Virus record (IMG/VR): IMGVR_UViG_3300028914_000059
Span: 64,001-128,000 of that record
DNA length: 64,000 nucleotides
Source: a virus
Lineage: Duplodnaviria > Caudoviricetes
Direction: 5' to 3' (one strand)
Numbering within the stretch: position 1 is the first letter of the stretch; each line of letters begins with the position of its first letter. Positions 6,962 through 63,706 of the stretch are shown here, piece by piece. The translations under genes and the position numbers were made by a program. The notes beneath the pieces were generated by a model that saw nothing but the letters and a program-made list of their open reading frames with translations, searched no databases and was not told the DNA's origin.

Positions 6962-7384
6962 ATGTTTGAAAAATTAGCTGAAGATATAGCTTACATGGCA
7001 CAACTAAAACTTGCTGCTCTTACTGAACAAGTAGAAAAAACAGCAGACGCTAGCCATTATCTTAGACAAATGCTAAATATGGCAAAAAATGCACCTGCAG
7101 GTACGGCTAGCATGGGGGATCTGCCAGGATATAACGCTTTAGCTGGTAAATTAAAGGCGATCGCAGGCCGAGCCTACAGTGGAGCAAGAAATGCTGCTAA
7201 TTCACAGCTACCATACTCACTCAAAAGTAAAATAGTTAATAATGTCGGACAAATGGTTGGTCAGGAATCAAAATATGGAATAAAACCATATGATTTTACA
7301 CAATTTCTAGGCTCAAGTAGTCCTCGGGCTGCTCTAAGTCCACAACAATTTCTAGATCTCGCTGCCTCTAGAAGAGTTGGATAA
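6962..7384 (+). CDS. KLAxDI-leader family protein (putative internal virion protein)
   Basis: MFEKLAEDIAYMAQLKLAA...EKTA. Confidence 0.75.
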   Translation: MFEKLAEDIAYMAQLKLAALTEQVEKTADASHYLRQMLNMAKNAPAGTASMGDLPGYNALAGKLKAIAGRAYSGARNAANSQLPYSLKSKIVNNVGQMVGQESKYGIKPYDFTQFLGSSSPRAALSPQQFLDLAASRRVG

Positions 7385-7494
7385 AATAACTAAAAACGCA
7401 AAAATATTCAATCTAAAAAGTCTACGAAAAATGCTCTTTTCGTAGACTATTCTGGCACACCTCAACAAATCAAACAAAAATAAAGGGGATTAGC

Positions 7495-7743
7495 ATGACT
7501 TTCTGGCAATCATTTATAGGTATGTTCAAAGGACCTGACGGTTATTTCAGCAGCAGCAAAATAATGAGCTTCTGCGGATTTTTCGCTTTTATTATCGTCA
7601 GCTGCATTTTATTATATATCAACCCAGCCAAATTCAACTATGAGATCTTCGCCTGCCTGAGTGCTGGCGGAGCTGCTGGACTAAGGGCTATGGACAAGTA
7701 TACCAATATGCTTGGAGCAAAAGCTAAAGTAGAGGACAAATAA
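7495..7743 (+). CDS. Putative holin (two TM segments)
   Basis: 82 aa, two hydrophobic helices, charged C-tail; near the spanin-like pair. Confidence 0.6.
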   Translation: MTFWQSFIGMFKGPDGYFSSSKIMSFCGFFAFIIVSCILLYINPAKFNYEIFACLSAGGAAGLRAMDKYTNMLGAKAKVEDK

Positions 7744-7744
7744 T

Positions 7745-8002
7745 ATGATAGAAAAACTGGCACAAGATATATATAATGCTGCTATTATCAAACTGGCTGC
7801 TTATGACTTTAATAAGGGACCTTATGGTAAAGAAAACGCTGAGTTAATTTTAAAAGAATATCCTAAAACTTTAAAATATATAGAAAACCTAAGATCAGAC
7901 CCTAAAACTGATCCAAGGATGCTGAAATTTGAAGAAGATAATCTCCCATATTTAACAAAACTACACGAAGATGCTCAGGCATACTTAGCCTCACTTAAAT
8001 AA
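7745..8002 (+). CDS. KLAxDI-leader family protein
   Basis: MIEKLAQDIYNAAIIKLAA. Confidence 0.75.
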   Translation: MIEKLAQDIYNAAIIKLAAYDFNKGPYGKENAELILKEYPKTLKYIENLRSDPKTDPRMLKFEEDNLPYLTKLHEDAQAYLASLK

Positions 8003-8005
8003 GCA

Positions 8006-9733
8006 ATGTTCCACAAACTAGCCCACGACATATATACAGCTACATTGATAAAGCTGGCTTTTAAAGCCAACCAGAATAACTTTACTCATGGCACCTCTGC
8101 TGTATTCTCAAAGACCACTAAGCGCCCCGACAGAGAGCCCGATAAAAAGTCACCCAAGAAAGGAAGCGATTCCGAGTACTGGGTAACTCCTATGGGGATA
8201 GTCAGGGGCAGTGACCACTGGGGCACTGTCGGGACCTGTAACTGGGATCTTGCCGGGTCGCCTGATCACCCCGGCAAGAAAGTCTATGGGTTTAGTCCGT
8301 GGGAAAACTTCAATAAGAAAACCGCAGCCTTAGATACTATCCAACACTACACTAAAAGTGGCCCAAAAGATCAGGTAAGCAAGTCGGTATCACAATGGCA
8401 TGATGAGAACCCTGAAGCTGCCGAAGCCTTTCTCCTAGATTTATATAATAAACTTGGTTGGAAAAACAACAACCCAGCAAAATATATGAAGACTAGACAT
8501 GAGTTGGAAAACTGGATGTATGAACAACTTCCTCAGTTAGGTATTAAAGCTGATACTAAATATCCAACGTATGGCAGTTTAGATCTGGGGTATACTCCTG
8601 AAGTATTCCAGGATATGAACTCTCATTTAGATATACCATTAAAAGGACTAGAAGATAAAGTTACCTTTAGTATTGGTGACTCTATACCAGTACTTGGAAA
8701 GGCAGACCCTGCCAGCAGAAAATTATACAGTCTTAAGGACATACAGAGCATGCCTTTAAATGAAGTTATAGAGAAAGTAAAGGCTAGTACAAATAATAGC
8801 AGAGGTCAGAATTACCTTGAAGCTCAGATATGGACTACCCCTGAAGAACTTCAACAGGTTGCTAAATTAATCGAAAAAACTGGCTCTAAAAAAGTTCTTA
8901 AAGGCTATTATGATATGACCCCAGAAGAACAGGAGGCTGCTCGTAACTCCCTTAAAGACAATGAAGTAGTCTACTTATCTTCTAAACCTATCGGTCGTGG
9001 GTATGAGGGATCTGCTTATCCAGTACTGACTAAAGACCTGGGTGAAGCTATCAGGAAAAACTTTAACGGTTGTTATGGCGAGACACCTCACCTTCAACGC
9101 ATGATAGAATTAAAAGGTAACAAAATAGACCAGCAGGTAAGAGATTTATTTGATGCTGGGGAATTTGAGAAAGCATATGAACTATATGCTGCAGACAATC
9201 CACGCAAACGGATGAAAAACAGGCTGGCTGAAAGAATGCAAGTACTAATGAATCCTGATAATGCTGATCTGTTTGCTGCATTAGCTAAAGCCCAGCCGAG
9301 AAGAGTGCATGAAAATATAGGTGGGGGTATAAGAGCTGTAGAACCAGGATTAGGTAGTCTTATTATGGAAAAGCTAAAAGTTCAAGATGACTCGAAAGGG
9401 TTCACTGAAGCTGACTTTATATCCATGAATACAGACCTAGCTGAAAGAATCATGAAAGCTCATATCGGAGACAAGCCGGCTTATGGAACGGACTTCCCGG
9501 AAAAATTTACAACACCCAATGGTAAGATAGGGCCCAACATGCGTTTTGCACCTATACTACGTGGCGCTGATGGTAAACTTTACCAGGTCAAGGATATACG
9601 AAACGTCTTTGATAAAATGGCTCTGCCAGAAATGTTCAGAAGTCACGAGACGGCCTTTCACAATGCCGGACTCAATGATAACAATCAGCTGAAAATATTT
9701 GATTTTGGTACTAAACCAATAGAGGAGGCCTAA
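8006..9733 (+). CDS. KLAxDI-leader multidomain protein with C-terminal protein-kinase-like domain
   Basis: Leader MFHKLAHDIYTATLIKLA; internal KTA (aa105) and KTG (aa291); IGRGYEGSAY glycine loop, AIRK, LIMEKL, LKIFDFG. Confidence 0.7.
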   Translation: MFHKLAHDIYTATLIKLAFKANQNNFTHGTSAVFSKTTKRPDREPDKKSPKKGSDSEYWVTPMGIVRGSDHWGTVGTCNWDLAGSPDHPGKKVYGFSPWENFNKKTAALDTIQHYTKSGPKDQVSKSVSQWHDENPEAAEAFLLDLYNKLGWKNNNPAKYMKTRHELENWMYEQLPQLGIKADTKYPTYGSLDLGYTPEVFQDMNSHLDIPLKGLEDKVTFSIGDSIPVLGKADPASRKLYSLKDIQSMPLNEVIEKVKASTNNSRGQNYLEAQIWTTPEELQQVAKLIEKTGSKKVLKGYYDMTPEEQEAARNSLKDNEVVYLSSKPIGRGYEGSAYPVLTKDLGEAIRKNFNGCYGETPHLQRMIELKGNKIDQQVRDLFDAGEFEKAYELYAADNPRKRMKNRLAERMQVLMNPDNADLFAALAKAQPRRVHENIGGGIRAVEPGLGSLIMEKLKVQDDSKGFTEADFISMNTDLAERIMKAHIGDKPAYGTDFPEKFTTPNGKIGPNMRFAPILRGADGKLYQVKDIRNVFDKMALPEMFRSHETAFHNAGLNDNNQLKIFDFGTKPIEEA

Positions 9734-10210: not shown

Positions 10211-10567
10211 TTACATAGTAATTGGCTTGAATGCTTTGGCTACGTTAGGCCTAGCTGCCTGCTGATAAGCCGTGTTATTCAACATATTCTGGATTTGAGA
10301 GAGGAAATTAAGCTGTCTGCCAGTAGTGGCCAGCTGTGGGTTTTTCATTATTCCATTATGAAATAACTTGGCAGCAGCAGGGTATGGGATGGTTCCGTTC
10401 TGCATTCCAGAAATGAATCTTGTAAAGGCCTTATTTGGCTGAGTTTGGAAAAAGTTAAGGAACTGCTGCATATTTCCAGCAGCAGCATACTTTTCGAACA
10501 AGTCATCCAGAGCAGCCAGTTTAACGTTAGCCATAAATGCTATATCATAAGCTAATTTATTCATCAT
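10211..10567 (-). CDS. KLAxDI-leader family protein
   Basis: MMNKLAYDIAFMANVKLAA...EKYAA. Confidence 0.75.
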   Translation of the reverse strand: MMNKLAYDIAFMANVKLAALDDLFEKYAAAGNMQQFLNFFQTQPNKAFTRFISGMQNGTIPYPAAAKLFHNGIMKNPQLATTGRQLNFLSQIQNMLNNTAYQQAARPNVAKAFKPITM

Positions 10568-20397: not shown

Positions 20398-23300
20398 TTA
20401 TTTCACCAGATATACAGTTTTAGCATTCGGACTACTTGGTAAAGCAGAAACCACTGAAATATTATACACCGTTGAATCTGAAGATACAACTGCTAATCCA
20501 GTGATGTCTGGAAGTGTGAAGGTTCTAGCTGTAGTAGCAACACCACTGACTATTTCTGAATAAGAAGTATTAACACCGTATATTCTAAGATGTCCTCTCT
20601 TGTTAGCTGCCGTAGCCGTAGCTTTAGCATTACCTAATTGCATATAGCAATGTCCCTGAGTACCTGCTGCTGGAGCAGTCCCTGGATAGGCAAGGATACT
20701 ATCTGCATCGACACGGGCAACATAGTTTGTGGATGCTGCAGAACCAGAAGAAAGGACTATTGGGTACCAGGTATTGCTGTCAGTATCCGTTACACGAATG
20801 TTTGTTGCATAAGTAGCTGATGCTGCGTTTCCAGAACAGGCTGATGCAGTAGTTGCTGTAGCGGCGTTTCCTGTGCAGGATGCAGATGAGCCTGTGATAT
20901 TAGATGAAGTTAGGGCGATTGTTCCACTAGCATCAGGAAATACAATTTCTCTATCTGTATCAGATGACGTTGCACACATAGGTGGTTTTATTTGTATTTT
21001 TGCAGGATTTTTATGTGAAGAATCTGACTGCTTGTATAGATTTATAAATCCAAATGCGTTTCCTGCTGTACCATATGCGGTAGAAGTTCCCAACGATAAT
21101 GCACAATATCCATTTGATGTTGTTGGTGTTGTATAAGCTTGTATTTTAAAACCTGTATTTGCATAAGGTGCATAATTAGTACTTGTTGTCATTCCTGTTG
21201 TAAATACTGGATAATACCAAGAATTTGCTGATTTTGATGTCGGTCTTATGTTGCTTGCGTATGTCGCTGATGCGGCATTACCAGAACAAGCCGACGCTGT
21301 AGTAGCTGTAGCGGCGTTTCCAGTACAGGATGCAGAAGAACCAGTGATATTTGATGATGTAAGAGCGATTGTACCTGTAGCTGAGGGAAGTGTTAGTGTA
21401 ACATCTGCTGGTGCAACAAGTGTTACAGTTTTATTAGCTGTCTGGTCACCTGCCTGAAATTTAGCCCAAGTTGTACCAGTACCATATAAATATAATCCGC
21501 CTCGTGAATTATTCGCATCGGTTTTTGCAATGTTATTACCTATAACAATATAAGATTCACCCTGAGTGTTAGCGGCGGCACAGTAGGCTTTAGCTCTTAA
21601 AGCACAGTTTGCCGCTGTTGCTGTAGGAGTTCCGATTCTAAGTGCCTGTTGAGCATCTGTGATTACAAAAGAGGTGCCGAACACTAGTGGATATTCTGTG
21701 TTACCTACAGTATGGGTAAGCTTGGCATTATTGGTGTTTGTAGCTGTAGTTGCAGTAGCGGCATTACCACTACATGCTGCTGCAGTAGTAGCTGTAGCGG
21801 CGTTACCAGTACAGCTACCGGATGAACCAGAACAGTTACCTGTTACATTTCCCGTCAATGCCCCACTGAATCCGTTGGGAGCTGATACCGTTCCATTTTC
21901 ATTTATAGTTAAACAAGTTTTTGTTACAGTGTTTGTAGTTACAGTATCAGCAACGTAGTAGAACTGATAATCAGCATTATATACACCGTGCATGAATTTA
22001 CCATTTGTCGATTTCATACGTGCCAGCATATTAAAGCCTTTTGCGGCAGTACTCACTATGATAGCACCACTTTCGCCGTAACCATTCTGATATGTAGAGG
22101 TTGTTTTAGATGAAGAAAAGCCGCCTGTAGAAAAGATATAACCAGTAGATGGATTTGCATAAAAACTTCCACAATAGACACCCTGCTCTTGCTTATGCGA
22201 AGTATCTGAGACTGTGGTACCATCAACCATCATTAATGGTCTATTAGCATTACCCGTAGAATACCATACTTTTACACTTTCTGAATCTGTTGCTGTAGCT
22301 GCATTTCCAGTACAAGCAGCAGCAGATGTTGCAGTAGCAGCATTACCAGTAATATCAACAGCAAGACTCCCACCACAGGCAGTCGGTGTTCCTGCATTAA
22401 TATACACTGGTTCAGTGCTGCTGCCTACGGTAGTTGTTCCCACTTTATCCGCAACACTCGCTGTAGCTGCATTTCCAGAAGTATCATTGCTCAGCGTCCC
22501 ATCTATATCAGCTGCGGCTACTTTTCCACTGTTATTGAGTATAGCAATACCACCAGGCTGACCCGCACTGTTTACTACGTCTGCAAGAGTAGTTGCACCG
22601 AGAGCGTTGTTAGCTGGAGCTCCTATTTTGCTGGCACCTGTGGAGGCGGAGAAAAAAGATTTTATAGTATTCCAGGCGTGCTGAAATATTTTCTTAGTAA
22701 CTAAGATAAGCCCTGTGGCAGGATAAAAATTAGCTCTTATAGTTTCATTTCCATGAACATTAACAGTTATCTCAGTGGCCGCCTGTCCTGTGCTCCAGTT
22801 CAAAAACCTTCCGCCCTCAGTGGTCACAGCCTGAAGATTTATAATAGTTCCATCCGGCCATATATTATGAGCTTCACCCCTAGGTTCCGCAGTAGCTGAA
22901 ACGACAGAAATGCTTCCACAGTCAACGTCATTTGTTATCAAAGTAACCTGATAGAATACTATGGCAGAAAATACAGCTATAATGTCCATCTCCTGGCCAT
23001 CAACAATAAAGCTGGCTGTAGGGGAGGCAGTCACTATTTCACCATCCACCTGCCAGCCGTCAAATTTATAATCAGTAGCCGGTATAGCAGTTAGTGTTAT
23101 TGTTGTTCCAGTCTCAATATTACCAGAAGTTGCGCCGCCTACTGTCCCCCAGGACACGTCATTGCTCGCTATAGTAACATCAGTATACTGGATTTCCTCG
23201 AACGTTGCTGTATATGTAATATCAGCACTTGATGTAAATATCCTGGGGTTATCAGTATTACCATCATTCCAGCTTACAAACCTGCAGCCTGTTTCCGGGA

Positions 23301-23820
23301 CAGCTGTAAGTGTAACGGTATCACCTTCATCGTATTCCCCTGAGCCGGTTACGCTTCCCAGATTAGCATCATTCACAGCTGTGCTGATAGTAAAATAATT
23401 AACTGCTTCGAAAATGGCCTTGTATGTAGTAGCTGCAGATACTGTTATAGTTCTTGGGTTATCAGAATTACCATCTTCCCAATTCACAAATCTGGAATGG
23501 ACATATGGTGTAGCACTTATCTGGGTACTAGTGCCTTCTCTGAAAGTTCCAGAACCGCTAACGGTCCCAAGACTATTATCATTAGTAGTGACAGAAATGG
23601 CATACTCTGGAATTGCCTCCAAAGTGGCTACTAAGGTAACATCTTCAGAAGCATTAAAGACTCTTGGGTTGTCAGTACTACCGTCATCCCATGATACAAA
23701 TCTGTAACCGTCATTAGCAGTTACTTCCAGGGTTACTTCAGCCCCTTCCACATAACTACCGGAACCGCTTACACTGCCATATACAGCATTATTTACACCA
23801 GCGACTATATTAAAGGCCAT
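20398..23820 (-). CDS. Tail fibre with about five InlB-B/Flg_new repeats
   Basis: GSVSGSGSY.EG..VTL..GYRFVSW.DG..DNPR repeats; CTGNAATAT repeats; VSALPSSPNAKTVYLV end. Confidence 0.8.
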   Translation of the reverse strand: MAFNIVAGVNNAVYGSVSGSGSYVEGAEVTLEVTANDGYRFVSWDDGSTDNPRVFNASEDVTLVATLEAIPEYAISVTTNDNSLGTVSGSGTFREGTSTQISATPYVHSRFVNWEDGNSDNPRTITVSAATTYKAIFEAVNYFTISTAVNDANLGSVTGSGEYDEGDTVTLTAVPETGCRFVSWNDGNTDNPRIFTSSADITYTATFEEIQYTDVTIASNDVSWGTVGGATSGNIETGTTITLTAIPATDYKFDGWQVDGEIVTASPTASFIVDGQEMDIIAVFSAIVFYQVTLITNDVDCGSISVVSATAEPRGEAHNIWPDGTIINLQAVTTEGGRFLNWSTGQAATEITVNVHGNETIRANFYPATGLILVTKKIFQHAWNTIKSFFSASTGASKIGAPANNALGATTLADVVNSAGQPGGIAILNNSGKVAAADIDGTLSNDTSGNAATASVADKVGTTTVGSSTEPVYINAGTPTACGGSLAVDITGNAATATSAAACTGNAATATDSESVKVWYSTGNANRPLMMVDGTTVSDTSHKQEQGVYCGSFYANPSTGYIFSTGGFSSSKTTSTYQNGYGESGAIIVSTAAKGFNMLARMKSTNGKFMHGVYNADYQFYYVADTVTTNTVTKTCLTINENGTVSAPNGFSGALTGNVTGNCSGSSGSCTGNAATATTAAACSGNAATATTATNTNNAKLTHTVGNTEYPLVFGTSFVITDAQQALRIGTPTATAANCALRAKAYCAAANTQGESYIVIGNNIAKTDANNSRGGLYLYGTGTTWAKFQAGDQTANKTVTLVAPADVTLTLPSATGTIALTSSNITGSSASCTGNAATATTASACSGNAASATYASNIRPTSKSANSWYYPVFTTGMTTSTNYAPYANTGFKIQAYTTPTTSNGYCALSLGTSTAYGTAGNAFGFINLYKQSDSSHKNPAKIQIKPPMCATSSDTDREIVFPDASGTIALTSSNITGSSASCTGNAATATTASACSGNAASATYATNIRVTDTDSNTWYPIVLSSGSAASTNYVARVDADSILAYPGTAPAAGTQGHCYMQLGNAKATATAANKRGHLRIYGVNTSYSEIVSGVATTARTFTLPDITGLAVVSSDSTVYNISVVSALPSSPNAKTVYLVK

Positions 23821-23885
23821 AACTTTGTCCTATTATTCACGAGTTAAAGGAGCTGATGTATTATCAGCTCCATATTAGTATACCA

Positions 23886-30077: not shown

Positions 30078-30088
30078 CTTCTATCTCC

Positions 30089-33957: not shown

Positions 33958-33974
33958 GGTGTTTCTCCTTTAGA

Positions 33975-34517: not shown

Positions 34518-34550
34518 TACTTTACTCCGGAGTTTAGATATCTACAATGT

Positions 34551-34579
34551 AATATAGCTTATGGCGGGCAATATGTCAA
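34551..34579 (-). promoter_or_regulatory. Sigma70-type promoter of the tail operon
   Basis: Minus strand TTGACA-17 nt-TATATT. Confidence 0.7.
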
Positions 34580-34653
34580 TGCTACTAAATTTCTAGTAAT
34601 TTTGTGGTTATAAATATAATGTAAAGAAAAATATCTATGAAAGGAGTAATGCT

Positions 34654-34764
34654 ATGGATAAAGCATTCAAAGGTATCGCACTGATCTGCTTAGCGATCAT
34701 AAGCTTCGTAAGTAGTGCTGCACTAGGATGTCTGCTTACCATTCTAGAAAAAGAACAAAAGTAA
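34654..34764 (+). CDS. 36-aa membrane peptide
   Basis: AAGGAG SD; MDKAFKGIALICLAIISFVSSAALGCLLTILEKEQK. Confidence 0.5.
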   Translation: MDKAFKGIALICLAIISFVSSAALGCLLTILEKEQK

Positions 34765-35284: not shown

Positions 35285-35971
35285 TTATAAGGTCATACGC
35301 CATGCCCTACGGATTTCACTAGGAGCAAGTCTTAATGGATACATAATATCGCCACCCCGGCGAAAATTTTGACTTGGGGAGAAATCATAGTACAATTCTC
35401 TAGCTTTCGACAAGGCATCCCTCTTCAAGGTATCTAGATCAGAACCCTCCAAATACGAAAATGGTACACCAGGATCAGGTGTAAGACCGCCAAATACGCT
35501 ATCCAGAAGGTGTTTACGCTTGTAATTATCACCATTATCATTCAAACCTTCAAGGTAAGATGCTAACCTTTTGCTATTATTGCCTAAATTCATGAGGTCA
35601 ACATCTCCACGTTGTCTCATTCTACCTATCTGCCCCAGAACATCGGCTACCGCTCCCCTACTGGATAACTCATCACTTAATAATGCCGCTGAAGACCCCA
35701 GTCCAGCACCAACACCACCACCTATTAATCCGCCTTTAGCTCCACCTCTCAAGCCTCCGGTAAGTCCTGCTTTAAGTCTGTTACCAAAGGTTCCAGCAGA
35801 ATTTCTATAGTTCTTGACAGCTCCAATAGTGCCGCCTAAAAGAGAACCTAAGCCAGCACCGGCTATACCTCCAGAAGTAGCTCCTCCTAAAGCAGAAAAC
35901 AGCATTCCTTTAGCTATACCGGCTAGTTTTACATTAGCTGAATTTATAATATCCTGTTCTAGTTGATTCAT
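35285..35971 (-). CDS. Glycine-zipper protein with type-1 (DI..ANVKLA) leader
   Basis: GGATSGGIAGAGLG and GGLIGGGVGAGLG; core nearly identical to 36006. Confidence 0.8.
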   Translation of the reverse strand: MNQLEQDIINSANVKLAGIAKGMLFSALGGATSGGIAGAGLGSLLGGTIGAVKNYRNSAGTFGNRLKAGLTGGLRGGAKGGLIGGGVGAGLGSSAALLSDELSSRGAVADVLGQIGRMRQRGDVDLMNLGNNSKRLASYLEGLNDNGDNYKRKHLLDSVFGGLTPDPGVPFSYLEGSDLDTLKRDALSKARELYYDFSPSQNFRRGGDIMYPLRLAPSEIRRAWRMTL

Positions 35972-36005: not shown

Positions 36006-36695
36006 TTATAAAGTCATGCGCCAACTATTAATAGAACTTTTAGGAAATAATAAGGGGTACAATGCACCCGCTGGGGCAAGAATGCTCCCTTCAAAAAATG
36101 AATCCGAAAAACTATCCGAAAAACCATCAGCGGCTATTAGTTCTCTAGCTTTTCTTAAAGCATCTCTTTTTAAAATAGGTAGGCTGGGCCCTTCACCCTT
36201 AGCGCTGTTAGCAAATACATCGTCTAACAGGTGTATGTTCTTATAATTATCCCCATTACTGTTTAATCCTTGGAAATAGAACAGTAAATCCTTTGTGGGT
36301 CCATATACGTTCTTGGTATTAGCATATCCTAGATGTTTCATATTGCCTAACTCACGTAAAGCGTCAACCGCGGTCATTCTAGCATCTAATTCCTCTGTGA
36401 ACGATGGAAGTATAGATCCTAACCCTGCACCGATACCACCACCTATCAATCCACCCTTAGCTCCACCTTTCAAACCTCCGGTAAGTCCTGCTTTGACCCT
36501 GTTGCCAAAGGTTCCAGCAGAATTTCTATAGTTCTTAACGGCTCCAATAGTACTACCTAAAAGAGAGCCTAAGCCAGCACCGACTATACCTCCAGAAGTA
36601 GCTCCCCCTAAAGCATTGCCAATTATATTTTTAGCTGTTCCGGCTTGCTTTACAAAACCTGATGCTAATTCTTTACTTCTCATTGCTATTTCCAT
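36006..36695 (-). CDS. Glycine-zipper protein with type-2 (SKELASGFVKQA) leader
   Basis: Two GxxxGxxxG helices. Confidence 0.8.
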   Translation of the reverse strand: MEIAMRSKELASGFVKQAGTAKNIIGNALGGATSGGIVGAGLGSLLGSTIGAVKNYRNSAGTFGNRVKAGLTGGLKGGAKGGLIGGGIGAGLGSILPSFTEELDARMTAVDALRELGNMKHLGYANTKNVYGPTKDLLFYFQGLNSNGDNYKNIHLLDDVFANSAKGEGPSLPILKRDALRKARELIAADGFSDSFSDSFFEGSILAPAGALYPLLFPKSSINSWRMTL

Positions 36696-36712: not shown

Positions 36713-37312
36713 TTATATAAATATCTTAACAAAGTCATTGGCATTACTAATAAAATCTGGTGCTGTACCTATAGCAGCTCTAAGCACTGGGCTACCCACA
36801 TTATAAATACCATTTCCAACGCCATCTAAGAAACTAAGACCTTTATATCCGACTTTATCAGCTATTGCTTGGGCAATTCTCAACTCTTTACCCTGTAACT
36901 TATCCAAGGGCAGCACAGAGTTAATCGCCTTAGTTACATGAGGGATCGGGCCATATGCTGCGCCAGCAACACCACCAATACCAGAACCAGCTAGAGCACC
37001 GTTGCCAAAATCCCGGGCCATAGCTTTCAGCCTATCTGCAGCTGTAACTTTAGGACCAAACAACTTATCATGCAATATAGATAAGCCTACTTTCAGCTTG
37101 GACTTTTCCCCTTTAGTTGCGGCCATAACATCAGGAATATAAGATCTGTTTATCAAACCCCTGGCAGTATTTATAGTGCCACCAAGCAAACCGCCCATAA
37201 GAGCACCTGTGGCACCACCACCAGCCATTTCACCTAGAAGGGCTTTGTAATTTATACCTGCACTTTTAACAAAAGTACAAGCCAATTGAGTGCTTTTATC
37301 TTTAATATTCAT
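36713..37312 (-). CDS. Glycine-zipper protein with type-2 leader (FVKSA)
   Basis: MNIKDKSTQLACTFVKSA; GGGATGALMGGLLGG. Confidence 0.8.
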   Translation of the reverse strand: MNIKDKSTQLACTFVKSAGINYKALLGEMAGGGATGALMGGLLGGTINTARGLINRSYIPDVMAATKGEKSKLKVGLSILHDKLFGPKVTAADRLKAMARDFGNGALAGSGIGGVAGAAYGPIPHVTKAINSVLPLDKLQGKELRIAQAIADKVGYKGLSFLDGVGNGIYNVGSPVLRAAIGTAPDFISNANDFVKIFI

Positions 37313-37342: not shown

Positions 37343-37975
37343 TTAAAACGGCTTAGTTCTTGGCCTTCCCAATAACCGAGCAAGAGTCCCGGCAGGAGTT
37401 AAAAGGCCGCTTGCAAAACTACTCTTCAGTACAGAATCAACTAATGAGCTATCCTCAGAATGCCTGAGCAAGCTGGCAACTTCACCTTTCTGAAGGCCAT
37501 CTAGGCCTAACGGTAATATCTTATCAGTGATAAAGTCTTGAGCTCCTTTAGGCATCGACCACCATTGAATATCAGAAATGGAGCTGTTGGGTCTTGCTAA
37601 GTGCTTTAAAATCTCGCTGGAATCCTCAAAAAGCCGTCGCCTTGCGCCATTTGCTAACGAACCAATACCGTAAGGTACTTGTGATGCACCTAACCCAGCA
37701 CCTACACCTGTACCTATAAGGCCGCCTTTTAGTCCACCCTTAGTGCCCCCACGTAATGCTGCCTTAAGCTTATTGCCTAAACCTGGATCAGCGGCTATGA
37801 CAGAGCTTACAGCTCCCTTGAGTCCGCCTATCCCAGAGCCTATGAGACCACCTAGTATTCCACCAGAAGTAGCACCACCTAAATATGTATTCAAAGGCTG
37901 ATTCCAATTTACTGCAGCCTGTTTGACAAAACCTGACGCTAATTCTTTACTTCTATTTTCAATATTCAAAGTCAT
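37343..37975 (-). CDS. Glycine-zipper protein with type-2 leader (FVKQA)
   Basis: NIENRSKELASGFVKQA; GGATSGGILGGLIG. Confidence 0.8.
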   Translation of the reverse strand: MTLNIENRSKELASGFVKQAAVNWNQPLNTYLGGATSGGILGGLIGSGIGGLKGAVSSVIAADPGLGNKLKAALRGGTKGGLKGGLIGTGVGAGLGASQVPYGIGSLANGARRRLFEDSSEILKHLARPNSSISDIQWWSMPKGAQDFITDKILPLGLDGLQKGEVASLLRHSEDSSLVDSVLKSSFASGLLTPAGTLARLLGRPRTKPF

Positions 37976-38000: not shown

Positions 38001-38600
38001 TTACCATAAACCGTTTGGAAATAAAGGATTCTTAGTTTGTAATGGAAGTGTTCCATATCTAATATGATTTAAGGGTGTGTTAAGACCTGCAGTAAAAGAT
38101 GGAATAATATCACCACGTAGCCTTCCTATAGAATCAGTATACTGTTTTCTAGCTTTTGCAACAGCTTCTGGGCCACCCATGATAGCTCCCATAGAAGACT
38201 CGTCCAGTAGAGATCTGGAAAGTTCCAACGCAGCTATATTAGAACTTTTACCACCTGGCGATTTGGCAAAAATTCTTTCAGCATTGATTGCATCCACTAA
38301 ATTAGATAACCCCCCTATACCAGCACCTATTTCGGCTCCGGTAAGACCGGTTCTCAAACTACCTTTAGCACCGCTGCTCAATCCAGCCTTTAATCTCTGA
38401 GCCAAACTACCTTCTGCCGATCTATACCCTTTAATAGCATCCTTAATACCGCCGATACCCATGCCAATACTGCCACCGATAGCTGCACCACTGGCTGCTC
38501 CCCCTAAGGAATTGGCCACGACACCTTTTATATCTGACAGTAATCCGGCGGACTTTACGAAACCAGTTGCTAACTGCTTACTTCTATTTTCAATATTCAT
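38001..38600 (-). CDS. Glycine-zipper protein with type-2 leader (FVKSA)
   Basis: MNIENRSKQLATGFVKSA; GGAASGAAIGG. Confidence 0.8.
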   Translation of the reverse strand: MNIENRSKQLATGFVKSAGLLSDIKGVVANSLGGAASGAAIGGSIGMGIGGIKDAIKGYRSAEGSLAQRLKAGLSSGAKGSLRTGLTGAEIGAGIGGLSNLVDAINAERIFAKSPGGKSSNIAALELSRSLLDESSMGAIMGGPEAVAKARKQYTDSIGRLRGDIIPSFTAGLNTPLNHIRYGTLPLQTKNPLFPNGLW

Positions 38601-39460
38601 GGTTTAAAAATTCTCCCATCTAATTCCTTCAAATAGTGTCTCATATCTTTGATTGGAGACATTTTCATATTAGACATAAATTGATCCATCAGTTCTGGAG
38701 TTCTATAAGAACTAGCAAAAGTGCCCTTTAGCTTTCTCTTAAATAAGCGATCCCCAGCACGTAAGCCAAGACCAAACTTGATCCCGCTGGGTAATGTACC
38801 TGGAGGAGGCGGTACCAGACTTTCATACATATCACGAACAGCAGACATCATAGCTAAATTCTGTTGCTTAGTGTCTGCCTGCATAAAAGTATCATTCATA
38901 AGTGCTTTGTATCTAGCTTTAAGATCTGCTGCTAAACTATCAGAGATGCTACCTCCGTGAAATTTATCTTCAGCGGCGTTGGCCATAGCTCTCGCAAGGT
39001 TGACAAACTCCTGCGCTTTCTGACTGGCAACATCTGTTATTCCTTGTATTCTCATAGGCTCAGCCCTATATCTTAATGCAGCACTAACTACTGGACTCAA
39101 TGGAGAAGTTGCTGCTCCTATGCCAGCGCCTACACCTGCACCCTTTAATGCATCTATAGAACCACGCCTCAGTGCACCCACTACCTTATCTTCAAAACTG
39201 GCTGGGACTACCTGTTCAGGAATCCACAGATTCCTAGGCTTAATAGTAGTCTTAGCAGCTGCATCGCGCCAACCTTTAATAGCGCCACGAGTTCCATTAA
39301 TACCAGCGCCTATCAAGGCACCTATCCCGGCATTGCGGGGTAAGGCTGCTAATGAGTCTTTGGCCCAGTTAGTCTTAAGAGCGTTTAGTATCTCTAACTT
39401 TTTATCAGCTACAGCCTTATCTGTATATTCAATAAGAGCATCTTTAAATGGATTAGCCAT
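38597..39460 (-). CDS. Glycine-zipper protein with no obvious leader
   Basis: AGIGALIGAGING and GAGVGAGIGA. Confidence 0.75.
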   Translation of the reverse strand: MANPFKDALIEYTDKAVADKKLEILNALKTNWAKDSLAALPRNAGIGALIGAGINGTRGAIKGWRDAAAKTTIKPRNLWIPEQVVPASFEDKVVGALRRGSIDALKGAGVGAGIGAATSPLSPVVSAALRYRAEPMRIQGITDVASQKAQEFVNLARAMANAAEDKFHGGSISDSLAADLKARYKALMNDTFMQADTKQQNLAMMSAVRDMYESLVPPPPGTLPSGIKFGLGLRAGDRLFKRKLKGTFASSYRTPELMDQFMSNMKMSPIKDMRHYLKELDGRIFKP

Positions 39461-39462: not shown

Positions 39463-40380
39463 TTAGTAACCACCTTTAAGCTTCTTAGATACATAATACC
39501 AAGGATTGGAATCTCCAGACTGTAAATCACCCCAGATATTATAGAGCGAGGGGTTATTTAACTTCAAAGAATCATGCCCGGATAAACTACTATTTATAAA
39601 ATTAACTCGTTCTTTAACTTTATCCCTAAGAGTAGTGTTAAAATTATCAATATCATCAAGAAATCTCTTGCCGCGCTCCTTACCAGCCCTATAAATATCT
39701 GGATCTGGCGGATTATCTATATGCAAACTGTTAGAAAATCTAAGTTCCGGAACAGTTAAGTGTCCATCTCCAATAACGCCTTTGGTGACAGCTGACAATA
39801 GCTTCTCTTTCCTTCGATTAACCAAATATTCTGGAATGTCTCTAAACATATGGCCATCATTTTTTATTCCTTTAAGTTTCTGCAAAAGATTACTATTATA
39901 ATTACCCAGAGCCCTGTCGGCATAGCTTAAACCTGCGCCGAGCCCACCTCCAACAGCACCGCCAATAAGACTATTTTTCCCATAAGTTCCAATGTTATCT
40001 TTAAAATACTGTTTAATATTATTTCTATTAATTTTTCCAGCGTGCATGTCTCCACGCAATTTTGCCATTGCTGGAAATAGAGCACCTATGCCAGCACCAA
40101 TGGCTGTAGCCTTAGCGCTTGGAGCTACACTTTTCATAGCATCAAACAACCTGGCTCTATTTTCCGGAGAAGCTAACATTTCTCCCATATACTGTAGCCC
40201 AGATGACACATTAAGTTTATCCCCGAGACCAGAGATTGTCTTGTTCTGTAAAAGATTAAACAAATTGGAATTAGCTATAGGACTAGCTACAGCATTACTA
40301 AGTCTTGTAAGACTAGACAAAACACCTGCTGTCTTAACAAATCCTATGGCTAATGTTTTACTTCTATTTTCAATATCCAC
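39463..40380 (-). CDS. Glycine-zipper protein with type-2 leader (FVKTA)
   Basis: Probable GTG start at 40380 after AAGGAG; DIENRSKTLAIGFVKTA. Confidence 0.75.
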   Translation of the reverse strand: MDIENRSKTLAIGFVKTAGVLSSLTRLSNAVASPIANSNLFNLLQNKTISGLGDKLNVSSGLQYMGEMLASPENRARLFDAMKSVAPSAKATAIGAGIGALFPAMAKLRGDMHAGKINRNNIKQYFKDNIGTYGKNSLIGGAVGGGLGAGLSYADRALGNYNSNLLQKLKGIKNDGHMFRDIPEYLVNRRKEKLLSAVTKGVIGDGHLTVPELRFSNSLHIDNPPDPDIYRAGKERGKRFLDDIDNFNTTLRDKVKERVNFINSSLSGHDSLKLNNPSLYNIWGDLQSGDSNPWYYVSKKLKGGY

Positions 40381-57248: not shown

Positions 57249-57575
57249 ATGGCTGGATTAGATGCTGAAAAAGAAGAATTTGACCTGATGACTTTATTTG
57301 ATCACTGCGTGCTGTTTACTACCAATAGGATCGACAGGAAAACAGTCCCCAACAATATGTTCATGTATGAGACTAGGGACGGTTCTCAGGATGGCCATAT
57401 CCATGAATTAGCCTACAGGATAATCGCGGATTTCTTTGGAACCGTTATCAGTAAGGAGCCCTTATTACCTACGGATGATCTGGACTCCTACAGCTACGTG
57501 AGTTTCGATGCTTATGGTTTTGAGCCTTGTGGCTCAATAACTTTGCAGCAGTATGCAGATTCTAATTTGCATTAA
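57249..57575 (+). CDS. LPD28-like domain protein
   Basis: LFT..RIDR.TVP.....YE.R...D......I..DFFGTVISKEPL matches my recollection of large polyvalent protein domain 28. Confidence 0.7.
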   Translation: MAGLDAEKEEFDLMTLFDHCVLFTTNRIDRKTVPNNMFMYETRDGSQDGHIHELAYRIIADFFGTVISKEPLLPTDDLDSYSYVSFDAYGFEPCGSITLQQYADSNLH

Positions 57576-57587
57576 GGAGGGAAACAA

Positions 57588-58094
57588 ATGAGTGAAAAGG
57601 AAATAGTACAGTGGCTTATGGATAACCAGACAAGAGGCGCAGCTTTTGCCTTTTGTCCTAAAGAGGTGCAGGACTGGATTCAGAATAACTATAAGAAGTA
57701 TCCCATTCTCAATCTCAGTTTGAACAAGGTACCTTTGGATGATTCGGTAACCGATTGGCAGATTCCTGCACTTCCATTACAGTTCAGACTTCCGGCCCAT
57801 AAGTCCTGGGTAGAGTTTGAGATAGATGGAGATGGCGTGTTTATCATAAATCCTGCAGAATTCGGTGGATATGGAGCTACAAAAGCATTCATGTGGTGGG
57901 AGTATCTGGAAGTACTTAAACACATGGAATACGGCCTTACCAATTTTGGTGGATGGCAGTATGAAGATAGTAAACGATGGTATCTTTCTCCAGCGGTTAA
58001 ATTACATAGTGATTTGTGGAACTCGTATGTAATTGAAGAAAGCGAAGACGCAACATCAGTTATACCGGTTAAGATACGATTCTGGAGGGAATAA
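57588..58094 (+). CDS. Trp-rich paralog family protein
   Basis: WVEF.ID.DG.F, GGWQY, P.KIRFW. Confidence 0.7.
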   Translation: MSEKEIVQWLMDNQTRGAAFAFCPKEVQDWIQNNYKKYPILNLSLNKVPLDDSVTDWQIPALPLQFRLPAHKSWVEFEIDGDGVFIINPAEFGGYGATKAFMWWEYLEVLKHMEYGLTNFGGWQYEDSKRWYLSPAVKLHSDLWNSYVIEESEDATSVIPVKIRFWRE

Positions 58095-58096
58095 TT

Positions 58097-58666
58097 ATGA
58101 TGACGGAAGAAGAAATTGTCACCCAGCTGAAACGAAATTGGAACTGTGGAGTAGTATTGTCTTTCATGCCTCAGGAAATAAAAGACTGGGTGCGTGAGAA
58201 CGCCGAGCACTGTTACTACTTTATGGGTCCTGGTGATTGGCGTAGCATGGAACATAGTGAACAGGTAGATGAAGAGTATGTCCACGCACTTCCCCCAACA
58301 TTCACTATGTCTATGTTGCAGAACAGACGTAGGTGGGAGCAGGAAGCATCTAATGATCACTGGGTAGAATATATCATTGATGAAGACGGCTTCTTTACTC
58401 TGGGAGATGCTGATTCAACACGCTACCACTGGTCGCAGTGGGAACGGGCTCTGGTCAATAATCTGGATACATTCCTGAGCTGGGGCGGTTGGTATTATAT
58501 CGAAAGTGGTGATTACTGGTACATGCGTCCACAGCTGATAGATTATGATCCCAAGCATACAGACTCCCCAAGCACCACAGACTTGGGAACTGTAAATGAT
58601 GGTGATGAAGATTATTATCCTGATTTGCCAGGTGTTCCTACAAAAATCAGATTCTGGAAGCGGTAA
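58097..58666 (+). CDS. Trp-rich paralog family protein
   Basis: WVEY.ID.DG.F, GGWYY, PTKIRFW. Confidence 0.7.
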   Translation: MMTEEEIVTQLKRNWNCGVVLSFMPQEIKDWVRENAEHCYYFMGPGDWRSMEHSEQVDEEYVHALPPTFTMSMLQNRRRWEQEASNDHWVEYIIDEDGFFTLGDADSTRYHWSQWERALVNNLDTFLSWGGWYYIESGDYWYMRPQLIDYDPKHTDSPSTTDLGTVNDGDEDYYPDLPGVPTKIRFWKR

Positions 58667-58692
58667 AAATGACTGAATAGGAGGAAGTTATA

Positions 58693-59100
58693 ATGAAGAT
58701 AGATGTAGAAATAAAAAATGCCACGATGGAAGAGGCTAAAAATATAAAATGTCTGGACATAAACTATATACGGTTCTATGATCCTAAAGAGCAGGGCATA
58801 GATGCCGAGGTGTGTATAGAACCTATCTCAGCCTCTGTGAGTAAAGTAAACGGGCACCCATTTTCGAGGAAGTATTCCGTAGAAGAATGGGGTATCATAC
58901 ATAAGGATGGGGAAATAGAAGAAATGTATGAGGAAAATGATGAATACCTCATGGATATCGCCAACAAGTATAAAAGAGTAGAGTTGGTTCTGGAAGATGA
59001 TGTATCATATAATCCTGACATAGAAATTGTAGTAGACACTTTATGGTTCAGCTGGCCGGTTACGGAATGGGAAAACCATAGAAAACGATATTCCTGGTGA
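58693..59100 (+). CDS. Hypothetical protein
   Basis: AGGAGG SD. Confidence 0.65.
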   Translation: MKIDVEIKNATMEEAKNIKCLDINYIRFYDPKEQGIDAEVCIEPISASVSKVNGHPFSRKYSVEEWGIIHKDGEIEEMYEENDEYLMDIANKYKRVELVLEDDVSYNPDIEIVVDTLWFSWPVTEWENHRKRYSW

Positions 59101-59111
59101 GGAGAAATAAA

Positions 59112-59291
59112 ATGAAACGTGGAGATGCTATGAAACTTCACAATGAAGACGAAGTTATAGTTAAAAAAACAGGACAGGTTCTTCGGGTCATAAAAGCTTG
59201 GGGGCTGAATCTGGATAAACACAGAAATCCCAGCGTAATAGCTTTACTCCTGGATGATGGAATCTGGTATACTCACAAGGAGGTAAAATGA
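59112..59291 (+). CDS. Small hypothetical protein
   Basis: GAGGAG SD; KLHNEDEVIVK.TG. Confidence 0.6.
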   Translation: MKRGDAMKLHNEDEVIVKKTGQVLRVIKAWGLNLDKHRNPSVIALLLDDGIWYTHKEVK

Positions 59292-59539
59292 ACAAAACTT
59301 ATAGAATATTGTTTTATGGTCTGGAAGGGTCTCAGAAATGTCCTGTTGCTTACCGATTGAACAGGAGTATACCGCTTCGAGACGCTAAAAAGATGTTAGG
59401 GATCGAAAAGTGGACTGGGGACGGTATCCGCCTGACCTATGATGGTGGAGCCCTTCTCTCAATTGGTAAGCATGGACTAAGTAACCGTCTGGTATTTGCT
59501 TATCACAGCTATCAGATGAAAGGTAGAAAGTATGGCTGA
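59288..59539 (+). CDS. Hypothetical protein
   Basis: AAGGAGG SD; coupled. Confidence 0.6.
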   Translation: MNKTYRILFYGLEGSQKCPVAYRLNRSIPLRDAKKMLGIEKWTGDGIRLTYDGGALLSIGKHGLSNRLVFAYHSYQMKGRKYG

Positions 59540-59780
59540 ACAGGAAATTATTAAATTACTTAAAGAGAATGTAGATAAGGGTGTGTGTCTGGGCTTCATG
59601 CCTGATGATGTAGTGCGCTGGTGCAATAAGAACAAGGAGAAATTATATTTCTTCTTTGATTATATGATGACAGACGATGGAAGTATGGAGCACGAATGGA
59701 TAGGGTATGCTGATGCTGCTTTCGTGATAGAGGATGACTTCGGTCATTTAAGCGAAAGAAATATTGTTGCTATATATTAA
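59532..59780 (+). CDS. EKEI-family paralog (short)
   Basis: MAEQEIIKLLKEN..KGV.LGFMP. Confidence 0.65.
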   Translation: MAEQEIIKLLKENVDKGVCLGFMPDDVVRWCNKNKEKLYFFFDYMMTDDGSMEHEWIGYADAAFVIEDDFGHLSERNIVAIY

Positions 59781-59792
59781 GGAGGTAAAAAA

Positions 59793-60125
59793 ATGACAGA
59801 TGTAATGATAGAGCTACAGTTCGCTTTGGATAAGTTCGGTTATAAATGGGAAGATATCGAGTGGGCACATTTAAACAATAAAGCCAATGAGAGGGATGCT
59901 ATAATAAAGCCCAGTTATTCTAAAGATGATATGGATAAATTTAAAGAGGACATCATCAATATGGGTCAATATGACGATGGCTACGGTGGTCAGGAACTCT
60001 TCGGAGATGTCGTATTCAAAGACGGAACCTGGTTAAGTAGAGGGGAATACGATGGTTCCGAATGGTGGCATTATAACATCAAGCCCACATATGAAGCTTA
60101 TATAAAAGATTTGGGCAGGGATTAG
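59793..60125 (+). CDS. Conserved phage protein
   Basis: YDDGYGGQELFG.V.FKDGTWLSRGEYDGSEWW. Confidence 0.75.
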   Translation: MTDVMIELQFALDKFGYKWEDIEWAHLNNKANERDAIIKPSYSKDDMDKFKEDIINMGQYDDGYGGQELFGDVVFKDGTWLSRGEYDGSEWWHYNIKPTYEAYIKDLGRD

Positions 60126-60257
60126 GAGGATAAATATGAGCAGAGATGAAGATAAAAGCCTGCAGTCAAATACAGACCCAGGCTTCACCCTGACTTTCCT
60201 CAGCGCCTTAGTTATAATGCTGGCAGTATCTCTCATAGTTATGTATCTGGTAGGTGC

Positions 60258-60530
60258 ATGATGTATAGATACCGCAGAAAAGGAAAAGACGGGCTGCCCC
60301 TATATACCTTCACCTGTGACAGATGTGACAAGTGGGTGTGGGATAGTCACGGGGGCAAGGCTGTCGGTACTAAGGACGAACTTATCCGCAGGGCCGTTCG
60401 GGATCTTGGCTGGCAGATTCTTGAAAATACAGAATCAAAAGCCAATCATGTATTCTGTAAGGAATGCATGGAAGAGCTCGAACGGCTCAGGCCTGGTATA
60501 TTTGACGGAGGAGGCGATTCTAATGTTTGA
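60258..60530 (+). CDS. Zinc-finger protein
   Basis: CDRC...GW...CKEC. Confidence 0.65.
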   Translation: MMYRYRRKGKDGLPLYTFTCDRCDKWVWDSHGGKAVGTKDELIRRAVRDLGWQILENTESKANHVFCKECMEELERLRPGIFDGGGDSNV

Positions 60531-62233: not shown

Positions 62234-62276
62234 AATAAAATAACCAGGCTGTGATGGCCTGGTTATTTTTTAGCTA

Positions 62277-63101
62277 TTATTTGTTCTTTTTATTTTTCTT
62301 AGTGTTTCCGCTGTCTGACTGACTTGCGCCGGATCCTCTGAGTGAGCCTAGACCTAAGCCACCAAGTCCACCAGCAAGAGCTCCTCCGGCACCAAGAGCA
62401 TACCCTTTATTTTCAAGACCGGATATAAGCTGTGATAAGTTATCATTAATGCCCGAAGTGCTTCCCTGAAGTTCTTGTACGATACTTGAAAGATCTTTAA
62501 TGCGCTTTTGTTTATTAGTATAATTTAACAATGCTTCATTTATGTTGTTAGCTTTTGCACCAGCGCCACCATTACCTGTAAGGTTTAATGTATATGCTAA
62601 GGTAGCGTCAGATGAGTCTTTAGATAAAGCATCACGAAGTTTACCTAATCCAGTATCTGTTTGAGCTAAACTGTTATTAATTCTATCCTGCATTACCGGA
62701 ACATTTTCAATAGACTGCTTGAAAGCCTTTGCCTGGTCTACTGCAGTATCAATTCCCTGTTTTGTCTTAGCACCAGCTGCTGACAGTCCTTCCTTGGCTT
62801 TAGCACCAGCTGCTGATAATCCTTCCTTGGCTTTAGCACCAGCTGCTGATAATCCTTCCTTGGCTTTAGCTATATACGGGGCCAATGCTTCAGAAGTTTG
62901 TGCTCCAAAGTTTCTTAAACTTTCCCCAGCTGCTGTACCAAAGTTTCTTAAGCCGTCACCCGCCTGTGCCCCCAAAGCCCTTAAAGTTTCCATAAGGTCT
63001 GCCTGCTTTTGCAGTTCTGCCTGTTTTTCCATTTCTGAATTTATCATGACAAGCTTAAGCTGAGCTGCTCTGGCTATATCATTAGCTAATTTATTAATCA
63101 T
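62277..63101 (-). CDS. KLAxDI-leader protein with 11-aa repeats and C-terminal glycine zipper
   Basis: MINKLANDIARAAQLKL..EKQAELQKQA; AKAKEGLSAAG three times (33-bp repeats); GAGGALAGGLGGLG. Confidence 0.8.
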   Translation of the reverse strand: MINKLANDIARAAQLKLVMINSEMEKQAELQKQADLMETLRALGAQAGDGLRNFGTAAGESLRNFGAQTSEALAPYIAKAKEGLSAAGAKAKEGLSAAGAKAKEGLSAAGAKTKQGIDTAVDQAKAFKQSIENVPVMQDRINNSLAQTDTGLGKLRDALSKDSSDATLAYTLNLTGNGGAGAKANNINEALLNYTNKQKRIKDLSSIVQELQGSTSGINDNLSQLISGLENKGYALGAGGALAGGLGGLGLGSLRGSGASQSDSGNTKKNKKNK

Positions 63102-63131
63102 TATTACATACCTCCGGAGGTTATATATAGT

Positions 63132-63160
63132 AATATAGGCTACAATTCTGCGTATGTCAA
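63132..63160 (-). promoter_or_regulatory. Sigma70-type promoter (duplicated at 63737-63765)
   Basis: TTGACA-17 nt-TATATT within a duplicated 5' cassette of about 125 bp. Confidence 0.7.
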
Positions 63161-63229
63161 TATAGAACTTAATTTCTATAATTCACCGGGTTATAACAGC
63201 CTGGTTATTTTTAGCTATGGTTAGTTAAT

Positions 63230-63706
63230 TTAATTGTCATTGCCTATGAGATATCCAGTACCTAGACCGCCTAAAGCACCAGCACCGAGCCCAGCTGCGC
63301 CTAAAGCAGTGCCTCGATTCCTGAGGCCTTGAACTAAATCAGTCAGTGTATCCCCTGAGGCACCCAAAGTGTCCTTAAGTGTTTTCCCGGCTTTATCTAT
63401 ATTGTCCAACATTTCATATGTTTGGTTATTTATTAGTCCCGGAGCAGGATTAGCTGTAAGTAATCCTGACAGGGAGCTTAAAACACTACTAGTGTGAGCT
63501 TGATCTGCGAGATCAAGGATGTTGTCAATTTCGCTAGCCCCACCTTGCAGTGCGGTTCTTAATTTCTGTTCCAGAGCTTTAGTTTTAGCAATTCCCTTTA
63601 TAGAGTCTATTATCCCAGCTTGTTTTTCCATATCTGCAGAATATCCCAGACAGGCTAATTTATACTGAGCTGCTCTGGCTATATCATTAGCTAATTTATT
63701 AATCAT
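63230..63706 (-). CDS. KLAxDI-leader protein with C-terminal glycine zipper
   Basis: MINKLANDIARAAQYKLA..MEKQAG; GAAGLGAGALGGLG. Confidence 0.8.
   Translation of the reverse strand: MINKLANDIARAAQYKLACLGYSADMEKQAGIIDSIKGIAKTKALEQKLRTALQGGASEIDNILDLADQAHTSSVLSSLSGLLTANPAPGLINNQTYEMLDNIDKAGKTLKDTLGASGDTLTDLVQGLRNRGTALGAAGLGAGALGGLGTGYLIGNDN

Follow-up and report, generated by a model that had tools for sequence, protein, structure and literature searches.

Background

In bacteriophage T4 the internal proteins IPI-III and Alt carry a capsid targeting sequence, which is cut off by the prohead protease gp21 (Mullaney & Black 1996, cited in PMC9024508 and PMC10052503; reviews PMC3012670, PMC9026906). 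In head proteolysis of phages phiKZ and SPN3US the protease is gp175/gp245, the motif is A-X-E, and ejection proteins bear N-terminal propeptides (PMC10052503, PMC7411985, PMC5694885). For the DarB protein of phage P1, the N-terminal 30 residues suffice for capsid entry and delivery with the DNA (PMC9024508). Herpesvirus assemblin (pUL26N/VP24) has R and M sites (PMC4498786), and pseudorabies virus pUL26 cuts after alanine, at YLQA-T and VQA-S. In this work we analyze a family of short N-terminal leaders ending in Lys-x-Ala (K-x-A), encoded in a 64,000-nucleotide stretch of tailed-phage DNA from the IMG/VR record IMGVR_UViG_3300028914_000059. This stretch, referred to below as the window, corresponds to bases 64001-128000 of one 180,070-bp phage contig with 41% G+C, whose closest cultured relatives, Salmonella phage Arash (180.8 kb) and Vibrio phages D69, D148 and D181, are all distant (identity of the terminase ~30%, of the protease ~37%).

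An earlier reading of the sequence alone had proposed that such leaders are a prohead-protease cutting site that marks proteins loaded into the capsid. The comparative tests reported here partly support this reading, lending weight to its core; these leaders turned out to be absent from Arash. We consider it fairly probable that the two leader types are N-terminal propeptides on capsid-loaded proteins and that the sequence at their end is what the phage's own head-maturation protease recognises. The predicted site has lysine at P3 and alanine at P1, followed by serine, alanine, glycine or glutamic acid. Our literature search yielded no paper on a Lys-x-Ala phage protease code or on Arash-like head assembly, beyond the paper on the isolation of Arash.

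Results

Eighteen proteins with related leaders

The type-1 leader, M-x-x-KLA-x-DI-x6-KLA, was found where the sequence-only reading had placed it, at window positions 6962(+), 7745(+), 8006(+), 10567(-), 63101(-) and 63706(-), with a variant at 35971(-), and so was the type-2 leader, (I)ENRSK-x-LA-x-GFVK[QST]A, at the minus-strand starts 36695, 37312, 37975, 38600 and 40380. Hidden Markov models (HMMs), one per leader type, were run over all 180,070 bp of the genome in six-frame translation, a check that the same reading had proposed, and recovered the family at the starts of open reading frames (ORFs). The type-1 model gave 12 matches in total (ten at E 1e-9 to 1e-11 and two weaker, at 3e-5 and 0.0035) and the type-2 model five at E ~1e-10; all were located at ORF N-termini, and noise started at E>1. 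When the first 45 residues of every ORF were compared with one another de novo, 18 real genes came together in one component. The 12 starts listed earlier are thus all genuine, and the claimed total of at least 12 is corrected to 18 genome-wide, the six members outside the window starting at genome positions 14964-, 36065-, 43903-, 44345-, 129806- and 137253-. Most leader genes have good ribosome-binding sites. The genes in the window are as follows (window coordinates; lengths in amino acids, aa; a slash marks the predicted end of the leader):

6962..7384 (+): type-1 leader protein, 140 aa; KLA/A end at residue 18, VEKTA at 27
7745..8002 (+): type-1 leader protein, 85 aa; KLA/A end at residue 18
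8006..9733 (+): type-1 leader protein, 575 aa, the largest cargo; leader end KLA/F; no family match
10211..10567 (-): type-1 leader protein, 118 aa; KLA/A end at residue 18, EKYA/A at 28
35285..35971 (-): glycine-zipper protein, 228 aa; variant type-1 leader MNQLEQDI...VKLA/G; body paralogous to that of 36006-36695
36006..36695 (-): glycine-zipper protein, 229 aa; type-2 leader ending …RSKELASGFVKQA/G
36713..37312 (-): glycine-zipper protein, 199 aa; type-2 leader variant ending …KSTQLACTFVKSA/G
37343..37975 (-): glycine-zipper protein, 210 aa; type-2 leader, FVKQA/A
38001..38600 (-): glycine-zipper protein, 199 aa; type-2 leader, FVKSA/G
38597..39460 (-): glycine-rich neighbour within the array, 287 aa, without recognisable leader
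39463..40380 (-): type-2 leader protein, 305 aa; FVKTA/G; GTG start at 40380 behind an AAGGAG ribosome-binding site
62277..63101 (-): type-1 leader protein, 274 aa; EKQA/E at residue 28; C-terminal glycine zipper and Lys-rich tail
63230..63706 (-): type-1 leader protein, 158 aa; EKQA/G at residue 30; C-terminal glycine zipper

In 17 of the 18 proteins a K.A[SAGE] end falls at residues 17-33, and in 15 it is the sole occurrence of the motif. Across the genome the motif lies within residues 9-40 in 23 of 176 proteins, against 8.0±2.8 after shuffling; for the same 176 proteins the reversed motif gave a count of 4 and an internal window a count of 8. The extension EK[TYQ]A had been described as frequent behind the type-1 leader, yet only four type-1 genes in the window have it.

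The bodies behind the leaders were compared by BLAST with a low-complexity filter and fell into 17 groups, 16 of the 18 bodies being without detectable similarity to any other and the sole related pair being 35285-35971 and 36006-36695; with the filter off, glycine-rich low complexity connects five bodies. The view that the cargo is mostly unrelated is in this respect correct, but 13 of the 18 bodies have glycine-zipper-like segments (GxxxG runs) in common. The two paralogous bodies had been called near-identical, which overstates the case: they are 54% identical overall and ~90% identical over about the first 90 residues after the leader. Their alignment begins exactly at VKLAG = VKQAG, so that a type-1 variant and a type-2 leader are joined to one kind of body precisely at the K-x-A/G junction, in line with the suggested interchangeability of the two types. 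In metagenome orthologues of the 63230..63706 protein the leader is kept almost unchanged.

A protease of the gp21/assemblin fold

The head module is located outside the window and includes (genome coordinates):

27372-28274: capsid protein, E 2e-44 to the Arash capsid protein
30062-32002 (minus strand): protease, 646 aa, PHROG 18299 match
33913-35469: large terminase
57510-60044: portal, E 5e-72 to the Arash portal

The 646-aa protease matches phrog_18299, head maturation protease, at E 2e-11, and is composed of an N-terminal assemblin/gp21-fold domain and a long (~400-aa) C-terminal extension. Its class is known only through fold comparison, because sequence searches against PDB chains and Pfam gave no match. 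An AlphaFold model built on a 78-sequence alignment had a mean predicted local distance difference test (pLDDT) score of 85, exceeding 94 for residues 40-220. The top 34 structural neighbours of the model were all capsid-maturation proteases (Z 10.9-6.2), and the next unrelated fold followed at Z 5.7. The best was varicella-zoster virus (VZV) assemblin 1vzv (Z 10.9; root-mean-square deviation, rmsd, 2.9 Å over 116 residues), beside pseudorabies virus assemblin 4v08 (Z 10.6) and T4 gp21, 5jbl (Z 10.0; rmsd 3.1 Å over 130 residues); the assemblins of these two herpesviruses span Z 10.9-10.5. With Foldseek alone the matches stayed at E≥0.01, and the fold assignment rests on a second look with VIA-align. 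On the strength of this model, a prohead protease with the gp21/assemblin fold is among the products of this genome.

In the alignment of the 78 sequences H99 and S151 are invariant and H177 is ≥90% conserved, which makes the three residues candidates for a Ser-His-His catalytic triad of the assemblin type; K30 and A32, the lysine and alanine of a K-x-A, are also ≥90% conserved. The domain further contains a conserved Cys-x2-Cys ... Cys-x-His cluster (C161, C164, C175, H177), which looks from its residues like a zinc-binding insert. To our knowledge there is no such Cys/His insert in T4 gp21 or herpesvirus assemblins.

The leader-end motif in the protease and in head proteins

The protease family comprises 3,950 clusters (50% identity) at E≤1e-3, from which 150 representatives were sampled for motif columns. 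In 127 of 149 representatives K-x-A-[S/A/G/E] stands at a single column of the alignment (median residue 29), and in 95 of 146 it recurs at a second column just after the protease domain. Per 100 aa the motif occurs 2.0 times in residues 1-45 and 216-275 versus 0.17 times in the catalytic core, and the reversed motif does not exceed 0.28. In our protease the sites after the domain lie at residues 222-252 and, near the C-terminus, at 585-623; in the model, sites before the domain and past residue 244 fall in low-confidence linkers. The site of the family can be written [V/E/I/T]-K-[T/V/L/S/Q]-A-[S/A/E/G], its commonest form being K-T-A-S. Leaders end with V/I/L-K-x-A or E-K-x-A, which are the same P4 classes as at the protease sites (V, E, I, T).

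Motif counts were then compared with the expectation from each protein's own composition, the reversed motif serving as control. The genome as a whole has 147 motifs versus 82 expected (reversed, 94 versus 83). Peaks occur in genes around the protease and the portal (12 versus 1.3, 10 versus 1.0, 7 versus 1.1 and 8 versus 1.4), and the protease itself has 7 versus 1.3. In Arash the peaks are gp220 (9 versus 1.2) and gp223 (7 versus 1.3), which flank the protease gp222 and were both found in the Arash virion preparation by mass spectrometry. The IMG/VR genome IMGVR_UViG_3300042898_006838 (155,932 bp, 63% G+C, 96%-complete; G002 below), a distant relative whose host has a very different base composition, shows peaks in its protease (8 versus 0.9) and in a neighbour of it (9 versus 1.4). 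Head-module enrichment beside the protease is 6-10-fold in three distant genomes, those of this phage, Arash and G002. Individual K-x-A sites in a 297-aa protein of our phage line up with K-x-A sites in Arash gp220, the two proteins being 24% identical overall; for the phage's 672-aa protein, also rich in K-x-A (genome 36932-38950), no similarity to Arash gp218 was detectable. Of 41 homologues of the capsid protein, with identities as low as 33%, 40 have K-x-A at the same column (residues 28-30), and the motif is rare elsewhere in this protein.

The motif at the ends of the leaders is thus the one that marks the protease's own ends, the scaffold-like proteins and the capsid protein, and we infer that these are cutting sites.

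Leaders and motif in other phages

IMG/VR was scanned with a degenerate DNA pattern for KLA-x-DI-x6-KLA, which gave 27 matches, about the chance level (estimate ~17). Six were true N-terminal leaders, on contigs of four kinds. A protease homologue was encoded in five of the five tested true-leader contigs (out of six), at E 1e-183 to 1e-26, and in none of five contigs with chance hits. KLA-x-DI is kept on unrelated bodies and among phages whose proteases are 50-57% identical. The slot between the terminase gene and the 297-aa K-x-A-rich gene holds leader cargo of 192 aa in our phage, and of 209 or 414+397 aa in close relatives.

A divergent leader family was found de novo in G002, where six or more proteins conform to M-x-x-(A)F-[ED]-[IV]-G-x3-G-φ-x-K-x-A-[AGS]. 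The G002 genes 59175-60506 and 81440-82240 have a common AEAEKTA motif near the N-terminus. In Arash, tblastn of the leader proteins gave nothing below E 0.3, and K-x-A sites are present near the N-termini of glycine-rich head-module proteins that have no common leader. Since Arash has the motif without a leader family, leaders are not required by the protease system, and since G002 has different leaders, the cutting code would be the older element and the leaders lineage-specific expansions of it.

The most abundant protein in Arash virion mass spectrometry is gp206, an RNA polymerase subunit. Our phage too has a large RNA polymerase of virion type, namely a homologue of gp206 with 2,071 aa (genome 44347-50562, minus strand). 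The second most abundant Arash virion protein, gp4 (OQ632216 2528-5821), has a long glycine-zipper-like stretch, on account of which this clade may generally package hydrophobic proteins rich in glycine.

Cargo proteins and genomic surroundings

PHROGs and Pfam searches with the leader proteins returned only sub-threshold glycine-zipper matches and one synuclein-like repeat match. For the Pfam glycine zippers (PF13488/PF13441) the best score was 18.9 bits, below the gathering cut-off of 25, and the likeness is compositional only. For the 575-aa cargo the ESM Atlas returned only unnamed viral clusters, plus a weak Kinase-PolyVal lead. The repeats that follow the leader in 62277-63101 exceed the gathering score of Pfam Synuclein (E 5e-7), are amphipathic and resemble apolipoprotein helices; they are succeeded by a glycine zipper and then by a KKNKKNK tail. 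This design looks lipid-binding, as judged from its repeats, which is unusual for a presumed capsid-internal protein.

Among the members outside the window, two tandem 129-aa glycine-zipper genes (genome 43514-44345, minus strand) lie directly downstream of the gp206 homologue and have an extended leader, MEKFAEQVTQQLA-x-DI...YKLA. The 195-aa leader protein at genome 136666-137253 (minus strand) contains K-x-A-[SAGE] eight times (KQA in six cases), within a helical region rich in Ala, Gln and Lys that precedes a C-terminal glycine zipper; such an arrangement would suit a scaffold-like protein or a member that is cut at several sites.

Adjoining the type-2 array, window 20398-30077 (minus strand) encodes two very large proteins of 1,140 and 2,063 aa with four and nine Listeria-Bacteroides / InlB B-repeat domains, respectively (Flg_new_2, E 1e-34 and 1e-81), which are probably tail fibres or adhesins. 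Only 13 proteins of the phage match Arash in tblastn, among them the terminase, portal, capsid protein, protease and gp206 homologue, and a megablast search of the GenBank phages with 8.6 kb of the window gave no match. Bases 1-532 of the contig come back at 179539-180070 with 52 mismatches (~90% identity), which makes them either a terminal repeat of imperfect form or a gene segment present twice, and no clean assembly overlap.

Discussion

Proposed pathway

If the leaders are propeptides for the head-maturation protease, leader-bearing proteins would join the prohead core together with the K-x-A-rich scaffold-like proteins. As the conservation of the motif suggests, the protease would free itself at the K-x-A sites before and after its catalytic domain, degrade the scaffold-like proteins and remove the leaders of 17-33 residues. 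The trimmed cargo, mostly glycine-zipper or amphipathic proteins of membrane type, would stay in the head and might leave it with the DNA; this injection step is suggested, and weakly, by analogy and by the membrane-type composition of the cargo only.

Several observations weigh against this reading. The capsid protein's K-x-A may be a capsid maturation site, as its fixed position suggests, but the N-terminal arm around it is conserved in general and the K-x-A could have a structural role; because the whole arm is conserved, the site is consistent with the proposal and not proof of it. The set of P1' residues was chosen after this genome had been viewed, although the Arash, G002, protease-family and capsid tests are independent of that choice. 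Three leaders have no canonical P1' residue at their first site (KLA/F, KLV and KLA/C). A hydrophobic-moment test of the leaders gave a weak signal (mean z 0.7), they are not clearly amphipathic helices, and we therefore make no claim that they are helical. In Arash neither the leader HMMs nor de novo clustering of N-termini finds a leader family, and there is no N-terminal excess of the motif, though the motif is present. Finally, the Arash proteomics (PMC10585845) consists of a table of 116 proteins with no peptide-level figures, which neither shows nor excludes trimming; its 'coverage' column is unusable, as 100% coverage is given with only two peptides.

Alternative explanations

The leaders might be cleavable pro-sequences only, which keep membrane-active glycine-zipper proteins harmless or soluble until they are trimmed in the prohead, packaging being directed by another part of the protein. 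The glycine-zipper segments of 13 of the 18 cargo proteins and the synuclein/apolipoprotein-like lipid-binding repeats of one of them would suit such a role, as would the N-terminal K-x-A sites of the Arash glycine-rich head-module proteins that have no common leader. We nevertheless regard it as unlikely, given that the region upstream of K-x-A is conserved well past the needs of a cutting site, on unrelated bodies and across phages, and that cargo without a zipper (such as the 575-aa and 85-aa proteins) has the leader too. Conserved N-terminal adaptor segments are known for tail fibres, and the type-2 array is situated among tail-fibre-like genes, away from the head module; together with the position of the capsid protein's K-x-A within a conserved arm, this would fit leaders that are uncleaved docking helices of a paralogous virion family, binding a common partner (the portal, the inner capsid surface or the tail) with K-x-A as the binding motif. 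The motif, though, is directional, with a flat reversed control, is concentrated in disordered linkers on either side of the protease domain and occurs 7-12 times in scaffold-like proteins, which is the pattern of the T4 and phiKZ/SPN3US cleavage motifs, and we think such docking quite improbable.

Leaders that direct proteins elsewhere, to the host membrane or to a phage-made compartment, or that are recognised by host proteases, the released -KLAA peptide being ssrA-tag-like, would agree with the membrane-type cargo and with a virion-type large RNA polymerase encoded as in Arash. This has very little probability in our judgement: the leaders are charged, unlike hydrophobic signal peptides, they co-occur strictly with the head protease family, and their terminal motif is the one flanking the head protease. 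There is also the reading by which the family is an artefact of chance or composition, or the product of ordinary recent gene duplication with no role for the N-terminus. Two members are clear paralogues and unfiltered glycine-rich low complexity links five bodies, but the leader HMM E-values of 1e-9 to 1e-12 against next hits at E>1, the de novo clustering, the 16 of 18 bodies similar to no other and the different cargo behind the leader in other phages leave it next to no credibility, and it was rejected.

Significance

Should the leaders prove to be propeptides cut by the head protease, Lys-x-Ala would be a third distinct cutting code for head proteases of tailed phages, beside (L/I)-x-E of T4 and A-x-E of phiKZ/SPN3US, and alanine at P1, as in herpesvirus enzymes of the same fold, would inform on how specificity evolved in an ancient protease lineage. 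The virion-internal proteome of thousands of uncultured phages would become predictable from sequence alone. The finding would also point to a packaged class of glycine-zipper proteins with a possible role in DNA entry or host takeover, and would provide a candidate tag to load foreign proteins into capsids in a clade with the cultured members Arash and D69/D148/D181.

A wider proposal is that a large, almost wholly uncultured clade, defined by the assemblin-fold protease (at least 3,950 sequence clusters), follows a herpesvirus-like Lys-x-Ala↓Ser/Ala rule, and that lineages inside this clade evolved interchangeable 20-residue address-and-cut leaders, which load a membrane-active glycine-zipper arsenal into the capsid for delivery to the host envelope with the DNA. 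We hold this to be doubtful; were it true, phages of gut and environmental bacteria would have in these leaders a portable tag for packaging.

Comparison with known systems

The resemblance to T4 lies in a short N-terminal tag that is common to unrelated proteins and ends at the (here predicted) cutting motif of the phage's own head protease, in the gp21 fold of that protease and in scaffold-like proteins saturated with the leader-end motif. An address function, demonstrated for the T4 leader, is a candidate role of the present ones. The motif is Lys-x-Ala followed by S/A/G/E instead of (Leu/Ile)-x-Glu, and no leader here ends in aliphatic-x-Glu. The leaders have 17-33 residues and form two families with 18 members, while those of T4 have ~10 residues and a handful of members; the cargo is mostly glycine-zipper or amphipathic and not basic DNA-binding proteins or enzymes, and the protease has the ~400-aa C-terminal extension.

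With phiKZ and SPN3US the system shares many N-terminal propeptides for one protease, the possibility of several motif copies and a large RNA polymerase (virion-borne in Arash). It departs from them in having P1 alanine in place of glutamic acid, the SPN3US propeptides are not one conserved leader family, and the genomes are distant, if related at all. The Dar proteins of P1 have no consensus leader, and removal of their signal is not tied to a motif (PMC9024508), unlike what is proposed for the present leaders.

By fold and by alanine at P1 the closest system is assemblin. The commonest site here, K-T-A-S, has alanine before serine as in VQA-S, and the layout of the protease recalls pUL26, with the protease at the N-terminus, predicted cutting sites immediately behind its domain, a long extension beyond them and a further cluster of sites near the C-terminus (585-623). 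In contrast to assemblin, lysine at P3 is near-invariant here, where the two pseudorabies virus sites have leucine or valine, and there is no sequence similarity (9-16% identity). The K-x-A leader system differs from the T4 and phiKZ capsid-targeting systems by its predicted code, a motif for which we found no paper; as far as its sequences tell, it would work like the T4 and phiKZ/SPN3US systems, yet its defining motif sets it apart from both.

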